From the NCBI RefSeq assembly GCF_988242995.1, contig NZ_OZ547043.1: 64,000 nucleotides of DNA; one strand, 5' to 3'. The stretch's first letter is position 1, and every line of letters begins with the position of its first letter. Shown in pieces: positions 60,101 through 63,100 of this stretch. A program made the position numbers.

Positions 60101-63100
60101 AATTGTGGCAAACCGCTGCATAGTGCGTTCAATGATGAAATCCCGGCGATTGTCGATGTTTTTCGCTTTTTCGCTGGTGCGGCGCGCTGTCTGAATGGTC
60201 TGGCGGCAGGTGAATATCTTGAAGGTCATACTTCGATGATCCGTCGCGATCCGTTGGGGGTCGTGGCTTCGATCGCACCGTGGAATTATCCGCTGATGAT
60301 GGCCGCGTGGAAACTGGCTCCGGCGCTGGCGGCAGGGAACTGTGTAGTGCTTAAACCATCAGAAATTACCCCGCTGACCGCGTTGAAGTTGGCAGAGCTG
60401 GCGAAAGATATCTTCCCGGCAGGCGTGATTAACGTACTGTTTGGCAGAGGCAAAACGGTGGGCGATCCGCTGACCGGTCATCCCAAAGTGCGGATGGTGT
60501 CGCTGACGGGCTCTATCGCCACCGGCGAGCACATCATCAGCCATACCGCGCCGTCCATAAAGCGTACTCATATGGAACTTGGTGGCAAAGCGCCAGTGAT
60601 AGTTTTTGATGATGCGGATATTGAAGCGGTGGTCGAAGGTGTACGTACTTTTGGCTATTACAATGCCGGACAGGATTGTACAGCGGCTTGTCGGATCTAT
60701 GCGCAAAAAGGCATTTACGATACGCTGGTGGAAAAACTTGGTGCTGCAGTGGCAACGTTAAAATCGGGTGCGCCGGATGACGACTCTACGGAGCTTGGAC
60801 CTTTAAGTTCGCTGGCGCATCTCGAACGCGTCAGCAAGGCGGTAGAAGAGGCGAAAGCGACAGGGCACATCAAAGTGATCACTGGCGGTGAAAAGCGCAA
60901 GGGTAATGGCTATTACTATGCGCCGACGCTACTGGCTGGCGCATTACAGGACGATGCCATCGTGCAAAAAGAGGTATTTGGTCCAGTAGTGAGTGTTACG
61001 CTCTTCGACAATGAAGAACAGGTGGTAAACTGGGCAAATGACAGCCAGTATGGACTTGCATCCTCGGTATGGACGAAAGATGTGGGCAGGGCGCATCGCG
61101 TCAGCGCGCGGCTGCAATATGGTTGTACCTGGGTCAATACCCATTTCATGCTGGTAAGTGAAATGCCGCACGGTGGGCAGAAACTTTCTGGTTACGGCAA
61201 GGATATGTCACTTTATGGGCTGGAGGATTACACCGTCGTCCGCCACGTCATGGTTAAACATTAAGGATAATATTGCAGATCGTAAGAGTATGAGAAGATC
61301 TTGCGTACTGTCAGAGCACTGATTTCTCTGACAGTACGTGCTGCGTGCAAAATCACTACATCAAATAAACCAGCCAAATCTCATAGAGATAAGAGTAAAC
61401 AAACTAACAGCAGCAAAGACATTTATCAGTACTACAGTTCTACTGGAAACATTCATTTTTGCCACCTTTTATCATTGCCCCTATGTGTATAGTACGGGTT
61501 AAGAAAATCCGCAATAATACTCATTCTGAAGATGGATAAGGGCAAGTTGCTGTTTGATGTTTTTTTCTCAAACCGGTTAAAAAACTTGATGTACGTCAAA
61601 AAAATGACGCATATTTGCGCGCGTTTTATTCATCTGGCTGGACGCCCGTACATGTCTCTCTATCAACATATGCTTGTTTTTTATGCGGTTATGGCAGCAA
61701 TCTCATTTCTTATCACCTGGTTTCTTTCTCACGATAAGAAACGCATCCGTTTCTTAAGCGCCTTTCTGGTGGGGGCAACATGGCCGATGAGTTTCCCGGT
61801 GGCGCTGTTGTTTTCACTGTTTTAAATCTTACTCACTGGCTTGACGGCACCACGCAGACTTATATCATTTGGATGAATCGATAAATTTCACAAGTGGCTA
61901 AGGAGAAAGTATGTCGCATCTGGATGAAGTCATCGCGCGCGTGGATGCCGCGATTGAAGAGAGCGTCATTGCCCATATGAACGAATTATTAATCGCCCTG
62001 AGCGATGATGCGGAGTTAAGTCGGGAAGAACGCTATACCCAGCAGCAGCGTCTGCGCACAGCGATCGCCCATCACGGTCGCAAACATAAAGAAGATATGG
62101 AAGCGCGCCATGAACAGTTAACCAAAGGCGGCACCATCCTCTGATTAAAATGAGCGTCTGGCCACCAGCCAGGCGCCAACCACAAGTAAAATTGCGCCAC
62201 AAATTGGGCCGATCAACGCTCGTAGTGGTACGCCATGGCTGCGGAAGATATCCAGCACCAGACCGCCAATCAGCTGGCTGGCGACCAGTACCGCAATAGT
62301 TGTCGCCGCTCCCACATTCTGATATCCGCTGATACTGGCGAAGACAAAAAACGATCCCAGCAAGCCAGGTATAAGTGTCCACCAGCGCACGCTGGACACC
62401 AGTTCACCAAACCCCTCCATACCTTGTTTAAACCACAAAATAGAAACGAACAGCACAATTCCTACCAAAGAGTTCAGCAACATGGCGATGAGAATGGTAG
62501 AGGAGCTCTGGGTGATGCGCACCATCAGCGTGTTTTGCACCACCAGACCAATTCCGGCGGCAATCAAAAAAGCAAGGGTAAGCGACTGATTCATCCAATC
62601 GCGTCCGGTTCAGTGCGCTCGTCGAGTTGCAACTGCATAAATGTCAGATCCAGCCAACGACCAAATTTAGTGCCTACCTGCGGCATTTGTGCGGTGACGA
62701 CAAATCCCAGCGACTGGTGCAGATGCAGCGAGGCCTGATTTTGCGATTCGATCCCGGCGACCATGACATGCTTCCCGCAATCCCGCGCTTCATCAATCAA
62801 TCGGCTTAACAATTTACGCCCCAGACCTTTCCCCTGATGATCGGGATGGACATAAACCGAATGTTCCACGGTATGGCGAAAACCATCAAAACTACGCCAG
62901 TCGCCAAACGAGGCATATCCCGTCACTACGCCGTTTTCCTCGCTCACCAGCACTGGATAACCTGCTAAAGTCCGCGCTTCGAACCAGGCAATGCGGTTAT
63001 CTGCATCCACCGTTTGGTCATTCCAGATAGCCGCCGTATACAACACGGCGTGGTTATAAATTTCCGCAATGGCAGCACAGTCGGCTTTGCGGGCAAAACG

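Follow-up and report, generated by a model that had tools for sequence, protein, structure and literature searches.

Which parts of the DNA between patD and ydcY are translated, from which start codons, and to which gene does the inverted repeat found there belong? The locus is part of the E. coli core genome and has the gene order patD > < yncL | ortT > ydcY >, with RefSeq genes placed exactly at these positions. It was examined within a 64-kb stretch of DNA, referred to here as the window, for which a sequence-only reading had placed a 31-aa yncL gene on the minus strand, a 57-aa orphan toxin gene (ortT) embedded in a longer 97-aa ORF, and a bidirectional hairpin flanked by the two. The yncL and ortT genes, the FNR site and the overlap of convergent transcripts are already known from databases and papers. 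Taken as a whole, the locus is very probably made up of two divergent mini-genes, a stem-loop linked to yncL and a non-coding region upstream of ortT, in which a run of seven A residues (A7) produces the 97-aa ORF. The two mini-genes would be independent of each other, encode small membrane-depolarising proteins and be transcribed divergently from a control region of approximately 195 bp. Promoter assignments, yncL transcript ends and the start of translation are putative, and are based on sequence comparison together with published annotation (table 1).

Table 1. Features of the patD–ydcY region, in window coordinates.
Feature	Position	Strand	Description
patD (gamma-aminobutyraldehyde dehydrogenase)	59840..61264	+	ORF, 474 aa; annotated in strain 7/2 and K-12; 98-100% identity (tblastn)
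Perfect 13-bp inverted repeat	61304..61338	.	arms 61304-61316 and 61326-61338, 9-nt loop
yncL CDS	61361..61456 (stop codon included)	-	31 aa, single-pass small membrane protein; NCBIfam NF000537; ATG at 61456, stop ends at 61361
yncL Shine-Dalgarno AGGTGG	61462..61467	-	5 nt upstream of ATG; read from sequence
Putative yncL promoter	61486..61514	-	-35 TTGCGG 61514-61509, 17-nt spacer, -10 (C)TATACA 61492-61486; sigma-S type
Mechanical 97-aa ORF	61532..61825	+	only the last 57 codons are the gene; extension is an A7 artefact
FNR box TTGATGTACGTCAA	61586..61599	.	9/10 match to TTGAT-N4-ATCAA; overlaps putative ortT -35 TTGATG 61586-61591
A7 homopolymer run	61598..61604	+	A6 in nearly all E. coli; alignment and probe counts
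Putative ortT -10 CATATT	61610..61615	+	followed by conserved G+C-rich stretch TGCGCGCG; function predicted
ortT (ydcX) CDS	61652..61825 (stop codon included)	+	57 aa, GhoT/OrtT-family membrane toxin; Pfam PF10753
ydcY (DUF2526)	61911..62144	+	profile match, tblastn

Two small membrane-protein genes

Comparison with annotated small-protein sets, which had been proposed as a check, finds that K-12 and the closest RefSeq genome annotate yncL and ortT with identical limits; the two products also match curated family models. YncL (MNVSSRTVVLINVFAAVSLFTLISMRFGWFI) scores 68.6 bits against the equivalog model NF000537 (cut-off 35, E = 3e-19, aligned over positions 1-30 of 30), and the gene is real, as the sequence-only reading held, and is annotated by RefSeq. 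Its absence from the ORF track is also confirmed: the mechanical ORF list contains only a 34-aa ORF with a GTG start (61361-61465), which would drop out at the default cut-off of 60 aa. The position of the Shine-Dalgarno sequence favours the ATG start (31 aa) over this upstream GTG; the corresponding plus-strand GCCACC block is nearly invariant in the intergenic alignment, and the same choice of ATG over an upstream GTG has been argued for yncL in Salmonella (PMC5437024). Relative to YncL of K-12 (b4598), the window protein is 94% identical and alike in length, position and strand; it carries two substitutions (F13V and G18S), and no structural feature differs. ORFs of the form MNVSS(R/K)TVV..RFGWF with one hydrophobic segment are found in 31 loci, at a distance of 177-198 nt from the ortT ATG, and these loci cover at least five genera (Escherichia, Citrobacter, Salmonella, Intestinirhabdus and Pluralibacter).

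The yncL transcript is expected to be approximately 175 nt long, running from a promoter of probable sigma-S type through a strong Shine-Dalgarno sequence and 31 codons to the 13-bp stem-loop. The promoter blocks, which read CTATA and GCAAT on the plus strand, show little or no variation in 21 sequences, and yncL of Salmonella and Citrobacter shares both the Shine-Dalgarno and the sigma-S-like -10 blocks with the window. The Salmonella orthologue is sigma-S-dependent and lies inside STnc1110, the sRNA that is the first catalogue entry of yncL's short transcript (PMC5437024). An Rfam scan of 61000-62300 with E up to 10 returned a sole match, STnc320, which is below threshold (15.3 bits, gathering score 50, E = 9.6) and was taken as noise. 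In the literature, YncL is described as depolarising the membrane, and both YncL and OrtT as inducible by heat shock.

OrtT scores 97.1 bits against Pfam PF10753 (cut-off 22.1), with residues 4-57 aligned to profile positions 1-55 of 55. It differs from OrtT of K-12 (YdcX, b1445) by one residue and is alike in length, start and neighbours; the window also carries an extra A in the promoter region. The K-12 protein is toxic, damages the membrane and depletes ATP; its gene is induced during the stringent response, and a knockout by ATG-to-ACG mutation has been reported (PMC4344625). By analogy, at 98% identity, the window protein would also be a membrane-damaging toxin. Its description as an orphan is consistent with its neighbours, which are the divergent yncL and a separately promoted ydcY, with no adjacent co-transcribed antitoxin gene. 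A promoter-like site of ydcY's own (TTGACG-16-TATCAT) lies at 61841-61868, and the adjacency of ortT and ydcY is found in Escherichia only. A 9-bp palindrome inside ortT (61735-61756) was rejected as a structure: it results from the sequence coding for KKRIRFL, and outside Escherichia mostly 2-7 of its 9 positions pair, with no compensation.

The control region and the long frame upstream of ortT

As had been noted from the sequence, the 57-aa gene is enclosed in an ATG-started ORF of 97 aa. This ORF results from a rare one-base expansion, from A6 to A7, in the spacer of the putative ortT promoter. The ATG at 61532 is in frame with ortT when the run has seven A residues and out of frame when it has six. 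A 32-nt probe carrying A7 is found in 0 of 5,426 complete E. coli genomes and its A6 version in 5,307 of them; around the A run, the best match among 5,396 genomes is 63 of 64 nt. In K-12 the mechanical ORF around ortT has 82 aa and a GTG start. At least 14 other contigs, from independent samples and on two haplotype backgrounds, carry the A7 allele with its 97-aa ORF; on the ground of these independent assemblies, pure sequencing error was rejected. When ortT proteins are aligned, the N-terminal extensions are frameshifted and non-homologous, and conservation begins at M41, which is the annotated Met. The in-frame open stretch before this Met ranges from 0 to 64 codons across 82 loci in many genera, TAA directly precedes the ATG in seven Citrobacter loci, and the indels in the intergenic DNA alignment are not multiples of three. 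The earlier view that the 40 upstream codons are not translated is strongly supported, since the frame is not conserved and exists through the rare A7 only.

The region that these codons would occupy contains regulatory motifs. The conserved TTGATG-N17-CATAnT is the probable ortT promoter and overlaps an FNR box; the A7 allele lengthens its spacer from 17 to 18 nt. Positions 1-4 and 6 of CATAnT are invariant in 21 sequences from six genera, as is the TTGA...TCA of the FNR box in 21 loci. A 5-bp terminator-like site on the minus strand (61624-61607) was discarded, as one site of this type is expected by chance in the region. The G+C-rich stretch that follows the -10 element is of a kind typical of promoters inhibited by ppGpp. 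It fits awkwardly with the reported induction of ortT in the stringent response. An FNR operator in the yncL/ydcX intergenic region was described by Grainger in 2007 and Myers in 2013; this K-12 site is common to the window, with one non-specified spacer base differing and the A run one longer in the window. ChIP-chip shows FNR on the K-12 version, TTGATGCACGTCAA (PMC1802558), and FNR occupancy of the site is also seen in ChIP-seq (PMC3688515, tables S5, S6 and S9). Myers et al. found FNR bound, yet saw no change in expression that depended on FNR when cells grew in glucose minimal medium (PMC3688515, table S9). According to the literature, ydcX is 11.85-fold up in strain CFT073 grown anaerobically on nitrate, where endogenous NO is generated. 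We infer that FNR would probably repress ortT under anoxia. Activation from a class II promoter, in which the box would sit at about -41.5 and TTTTAT would be a weak -10, is geometrically possible and less likely than repression: CATAnT is invariant, whereas the T-rich -10 candidate downstream of it is not.

Two further readings of this region have to be weighed. That OrtT is made in an extended form, either of 97 aa from ATG 61532 in A7 strains or of 73 aa from ATG 61604 in all strains, is barely credible. The longer frame is open in the window and recurs in those independent contigs on both backgrounds, and most E. coli have ATG 61604 in frame with ortT. However, the extension has no conservation of sequence, frame or length, neither ATG is preceded by a Shine-Dalgarno sequence, and a stop codon stands directly before the annotated ATG in the seven loci. 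Both ATGs also lie upstream of or within the promoter and FNR box, the first of them 54 nt upstream of the conserved putative promoter, and are probably outside the mRNA; in addition, the Pfam model and GhoT both start at the Met of the 57-aa form. Neither yncL nor ortT is mentioned in the main text of the Onc112 paper or in a paper on small proteins in stress, and a literature search found no paper joining ortT with ribosome profiling. We also regard it as improbable that yncL and ortT are a divergent module of membrane-depolarising peptides with a common control region bound by FNR and IHF, in which YncL modulates or partners OrtT. The spacing from ATG to ATG is constant (approximately 177-198 bp) in at least five genera, also in loci that have no other neighbour in common. 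In the antitoxin test published for the ‘UTR’, the fragment (primer UTR-F) started inside yncL (PMC4344625), so an intact yncL was never included. Against the module, a genomic-library screen for an antitoxin of ortT found none (PMC4344625), and ortT occurs without adjacent yncL in most sampled genera, including Enterobacter, Kosakonia, Lelliottia and Leclercia. YncL's own membrane depolarisation was separately counted against the module. Independent genes are the preferred reading, with ortT translation probably starting at ATG 61652 and the sequence upstream serving as a control region, not as coding sequence.

The stem-loop between patD and yncL

The hairpin had been titled as flanked by yncL and ortT, which is wrong, and placed in the accompanying text between patD and yncL, with which the sequence agrees. 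It had further been described as a perfect 12-bp repeat at 61307-61340: the repeat is real, the arms (CGTACTGTCAGAG and CTCTGACAGTACG, with seven G-C pairs) are 13 bp long, and the coordinates were 2-3 nt off, the 12-mers themselves sitting at 61305-61316 and 61326-61337. The gap from the patD stop to the hairpin is 40 nt. The window contains only two perfect inverted repeats with arms of 12 bp or more around a short loop, this being one, whereas 20 simulations under a first-order Markov model produced three in total and never more than one each (a chance expectation of about 0.15 per window); the repeat is far beyond chance. On both strands it is predicted to fold at approximately -23 to -24 kcal/mol (z-scores -3.2 and -3.8). 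Compensatory changes affect 7 of the 13 stem pairs, and 91% of cells in the alignment are paired, against 41-53% in slid controls. Allowing for G-U pairs in the RNA favours neither strand, as 154 of 169 cells are paired for the plus strand and 147 of 169 for the minus strand. A 10-bp stem core is kept in 21 sequences, and the stem-loop is conserved in Escherichia, Citrobacter and Salmonella; Escherichia has GTCAGAG, Citrobacter GGCAGAGAG and Salmonella GGCGGAGAGG, and pairing is kept. This comparative evidence points firmly to a real stem-loop under structural selection.

The genomes in which the flanking gene differs indicate where the element belongs. The hairpin follows yncL in 11 loci in which patD is separate from yncL or is absent from the retrieved flank of approximately 3 kb. 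In Citrobacter loci with patD 0.5-2.3 kb away, the hairpin is by yncL and patD has a different terminator of its own. Since it remains beside yncL in genomes with patD at another place, the hairpin is selected as part of yncL; the synteny argues that the stem-loop is the 3′ element of yncL and is common to patD in some genera only. In Escherichia and Salmonella, patD converges on the yncL stem-loop, and the sharing of it implies that the transcripts overlap there. The pair patD-yncL is listed among convergent genes whose transcripts overlap in half or more of 58 MG1655 transcriptomes (PMC12288877).

How the hairpin ends transcripts is a matter on which the earlier term ‘bidirectional hairpin’ holds in part. 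The structure and the listed convergent overlap agree with it; the lack of a U-tract on either strand and the linkage to yncL, not patD, do not. A stable, G+C-containing stem-loop is present as in canonical intrinsic terminators, and it lies between convergent genes as bidirectional terminators do. No U-tract follows the stem on either strand (the plus tail is GUGCUGCGUGC and the minus tail CAAGAUCUUCUC), a terminator scan made no call at 61304-61338, and the hairpin has not been retained by both genes in evolution. A true bidirectional terminator for patD and yncL, whether intrinsic or acting through hairpin-positioned head-on collision of RNA polymerases, is thus a tentative alternative that we consider unlikely. 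It is favoured by the location of the hairpin, 40 nt past the patD stop and 22 nt past that of yncL in a listed overlapping pair, by folding and pairing that are equal and kept on both strands, by the absence of any other hairpin behind patD in Escherichia, and by a collision mechanism that needs a stem-loop only (10.1101/2022.10.23.513370, abstract). Against it stand the absent U-tracts, the silent terminator scan and the Citrobacter loci. Intrinsic and bidirectional terminators of convergent E. coli genes, convergent excludons included, likewise have a stable stem-loop between the convergent stops and reported transcript overlap, but they are flanked by A- and U-tracts, whereas the window stem has neither, has a loop of 9 nt and is linked in evolution to yncL alone. 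A class of bidirectional terminators between convergent E. coli genes is said to have been defined by SEnd-seq (Ju et al. 2019). Pluralibacter yncL has, in place of the window-type stem-loop, a textbook terminator of A-tract, GC-stem and T-tract.

It is very improbable that the palindrome is not an RNA structure at all, and serves instead as the DNA operator of a dimeric protein or is a chance or dispersed (REP-like) repeat. The dyad symmetry is perfect and a conserved GATC-containing motif lies a few bases off, as an operator might have; however, the sequence varies while pairing persists, and covariation in 7 of 13 pairs indicates structural constraint, not sequence-specific binding. A REP/BIME-like or chance repeat does not fit with an element that is unique in the window, where about 0.15 would be expected, and that was found in 5,316 of 5,426 genomes at a median of one place per genome. 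The stem-loop as the 3′ element of yncL is therefore preferred. Lying approximately 22 nt past the yncL stop, it would define or protect the yncL 3′ end; a textbook intrinsic terminator is unlikely for lack of a U-tract, and its likeliest action may be to end transcription in a non-canonical way where the two genes converge, or to block 3′-exonucleases.

What the locus illustrates

The biology found here is ordinary and known, and its value as a discovery is small. The locus illustrates that a one-base homopolymer polymorphism may create a long, plausible ORF that swallows a real small gene, and that a population-wide check of the allele settles such a spurious ORF at once. A hairpin between two genes can be assigned to one of them, here to the yncL unit, by tracing genomes in which the flanking gene is different. 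The yncL 3′ stem-loop, which has no U-tract and is kept in Escherichia, Citrobacter and Salmonella, offers a clean natural case for questions of how 3′ ends are set.

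The patD–yncL–ortT–ydcY locus and its products

Positions 59840-62144 of the window correspond to the E. coli patD/yncL/ortT/ydcY locus. When 751 nt around the finding are used as a query, 5,415 of 5,426 complete E. coli genomes match, and the underlying annotation reads patD, yncL ('stress response membrane protein'), ortT ('orphan toxin') and ydcY; strain 7/2 and K-12 MG1655 share this annotation in both gene order and coordinates. RefSeq annotation and family models concur with the identities that the sequence-only reading gave to yncL and ortT, which were essentially right. 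Its account of the ORF track was also accurate: a mechanical ORF list holds yncL only as a 34-aa ORF with a GTG start, and ortT only within a 97-aa ORF at 61532-61825. The presence of yncL, of ortT inside the 97-aa ORF and of an inverted repeat is confirmed.

Features of the yncL–ortT region (window coordinates)
Feature	Position	Strand	Details
Hairpin	61304-61316 and 61326-61338		13-bp perfect arms, 9-nt loop
yncL CDS	61361-61456	minus	31 aa; NCBIfam equivalog NF000537, 68.6 bits (cut-off 35)
yncL AGGTGG element		minus	5 nt before ATG; conserved
Putative yncL -10, (C)TATACA	61492-61486	minus	17 nt after TTGCGG; conserved
Putative yncL -35, TTGCGG	61514-61509	minus	conserved (21-region alignment)
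Putative ortT -35, TTGATG	61586-61591	plus	conserved block
FNR box, TTGATGTACGTCAA	61586-61599		overlaps putative ortT -35 hexamer; 9/10 specified positions of TTGAT-N4-ATCAA
Putative ortT -10, CATATT	61610-61615	plus	17 nt after TTGATG (18 in window)
ortT CDS	61652-61825	plus	57 aa; Pfam PF10753 (Toxin_GhoT_OrtT), 97 bits (cut-off 22.1)
ydcY promoter-like site	61841-61868		ahead of ydcY; TTGACG, 16 nt, TATCAT; sigma-70-like, 10/12

YncL is induced by heat shock and in stationary phase, depolarises the membrane and causes the nucleoid to condense (PMC12542507); it is cut by RseP in vivo (PMC10470546), and its mRNA pairs with RprA and KilS in RIL-seq and TRIC-seq. OrtT causes membrane damage and a fall in ATP; stringent and heat stress induce it (PMC4344625). 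The two divergent start codons lie 177-198 nt apart in at least five genera, while most other genera sampled carry ortT without yncL, so that functional coupling of the pair is no more than a possibility. Among 82 ortT loci, ydcY, ydcZ and mnaT adjoin ortT only in Escherichia.

Putative control elements between yncL and ortT

Control blocks were read from an alignment of 21 yncL–ortT intergenic regions. The TTGATG-17-CATAnT arrangement ahead of ortT, in which CATAnT is unvarying from Escherichia to Pluralibacter, would fit a sigma-70 promoter. The elements on the yncL side match the sigma-S dependence reported for the orthologue in Salmonella, the transcript of which was originally listed as sRNA STnc1110 (PMC5437024).

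The FNR box is conserved across six genera, with TTGA...TCA invariant. The K-12 version of the site was retrieved as an FNR target by ChIP-chip (PMC1802558) and recovered in all ChIP-seq datasets (PMC3688515 Tables S5, S6); an FNR-dependent expression change was not detected for it in glucose minimal medium (PMC3688515 Table S9). In strain CFT073 grown anaerobically on nitrate, where endogenous NO is generated, ydcX (ortT) rises 11.85-fold (PMC5320621), as could happen if repression by FNR were relieved.

Directly after the putative -10 lies a conserved G+C-rich stretch, TGCGCGCG (61616-61623). G+C-rich discriminators are typical of promoters inhibited by ppGpp, which fits poorly with the published induction of ortT in the stringent response. 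An imperfect 18-nt inverted repeat (61597-61614 and 61668-61685; 78% complementary, arms 53 nt apart) joins the promoter region to ortT codons 6-11; its left arm probably lies 5′ of the ortT transcription start.

Origin of the 97-aa frame

The 97-aa frame is an artefact of a single indel, a run of seven adenines (A7) at 61598-61604 where the closest genome and K-12 have six (A6). In the A6 context ortT and the ATG at 61532 are in different frames, and the mechanical ORF around ortT in K-12 is 82 aa with a GTG start; the putative promoter spacer measures 17 nt with A6 and 18 nt with A7. None of 5,396 genomes matched a 64-nt query over the run exactly; the best matches were spans of 63 nt. With a 32-nt probe in which every 28-mer seed has to cross the run, the A7 version matched none of 5,426 complete E. 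coli genomes, whereas the A6 control matched 5,307 (5,299 exactly). A7 is nevertheless a real, if rare, polymorphism, since at least 14 contigs, drawn from independent draft and read-derived assemblies and sequencing runs, encode an exact or near-identical 97-aa product; they fall on two haplotype backgrounds, which differ from the window by 0 or by 20-29 changes across 1.5 kb. The two backgrounds suggest recurrent slippage.

The proposal that the 40 codons upstream of ortT are untranslated is borne out by comparison. Across the 82 loci, which span Escherichia, Salmonella, Citrobacter, Enterobacter, Kosakonia, Lelliottia, Leclercia and other genera, the ortT frame stays open for anything between 0 and 64 codons before its ATG, and in seven Citrobacter loci TAA immediately precedes the ATG. 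Database proteins with N-terminal extensions carry unrelated, mutually frameshifted ones, column conservation starting at the annotated Met, and indels in the intergenic DNA alignment are not multiples of three. In a plasmid construct, changing the ortT start from ATG to ACG abolishes toxicity (PMC4344625). These codons are very probably non-coding. The first ATG of the 97-aa ORF lies 54 nt 5′ of the putative ortT promoter, which would probably place it outside the ortT transcript.

The hairpin downstream of yncL

A perfect 12-bp repeat had been reported at 61307-61340; the repeat is there, with coordinates 2-3 nt off. The window holds two repeats of this kind, where about 0.15 would be expected by chance. 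Either strand folds to about -23 kcal/mol, and the repeat occurs as a single copy in 5,316 genomes. RNAalifold, applied to 13 aligned patD–yncL spacers from Escherichia, Citrobacter and Salmonella, finds the helix, with compensatory double changes in 7 of 13 pairs; 91% of all cells are paired, versus 41-53% once the 3′ partner is shifted by 1-3 columns, and the covariation score was reached by none of 500 shuffles. A 10-bp core is kept in all 21 sequences aligned in the yncL sense.

The hairpin is best assigned to the yncL unit, because the GGCAGAGAG/CTCTCTGCC structure stays directly after the yncL stop at 11 loci where patD is 0.5-2.3 kb away or not found within about 3 kb of retrieved flank, and patD, where present there, has another terminator (in C. 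amalonaticus, a textbook GC stem then T5). In Escherichia, patD converges on this yncL hairpin, consistent with the listing of patD–yncL as a convergent pair whose transcripts overlap in at least half of 58 MG1655 transcriptomes (PMC12288877). Of the 'bidirectional hairpin' first proposed, the structure and the overlapping convergent transcripts stand; against it, a U-tract after the stem is absent on both strands, a terminator scan does not call the hairpin, and it follows yncL rather than patD. Non-canonical termination, collision-assisted termination (as described for convergent pairs) and a block to exonucleolytic trimming are candidate modes of action.

A GATC motif at 61294-61300 (plus strand AGATCTT, minus sense AAGATCT) lies a few nucleotides 3′ of the hairpin in the yncL sense; (A/C)GATCTT occurs at a similar distance in Escherichia and many Citrobacter, even at loci without adjacent patD. 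At loci L060, L065 and L077 (Pluralibacter and relatives), yncL encodes 30 aa (MEVSS/MDVSS...) and a canonical bidirectional-type A-tract/GC-stem/T-tract terminator, AAAAAAGCAGCC...GGCTGCTTTTTT, about 30-80 nt past the stop, replaces the U-tract-less GGCAGAGAG hairpin; the 3′ element is swapped while yncL and its place beside ortT are kept. The window's only further perfect inverted repeat with a short loop and arms of 12 bp or more (1765-1791; AAAAAACGGCAC, 3-nt loop, complement) looks like an A-tract/stem/T-tract terminator. A 9-bp perfect repeat inside ortT (61735-61756, 4-nt loop) was rejected as a structure, being unconserved outside Escherichia; it is probably a by-product of the KKRIRFL codons.

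In substance, the patD–yncL–ortT locus was already known from annotation or publications; the small refinements added here are that the 97-aa ORF stems from A7, that the hairpin is linked to yncL and that it covaries.
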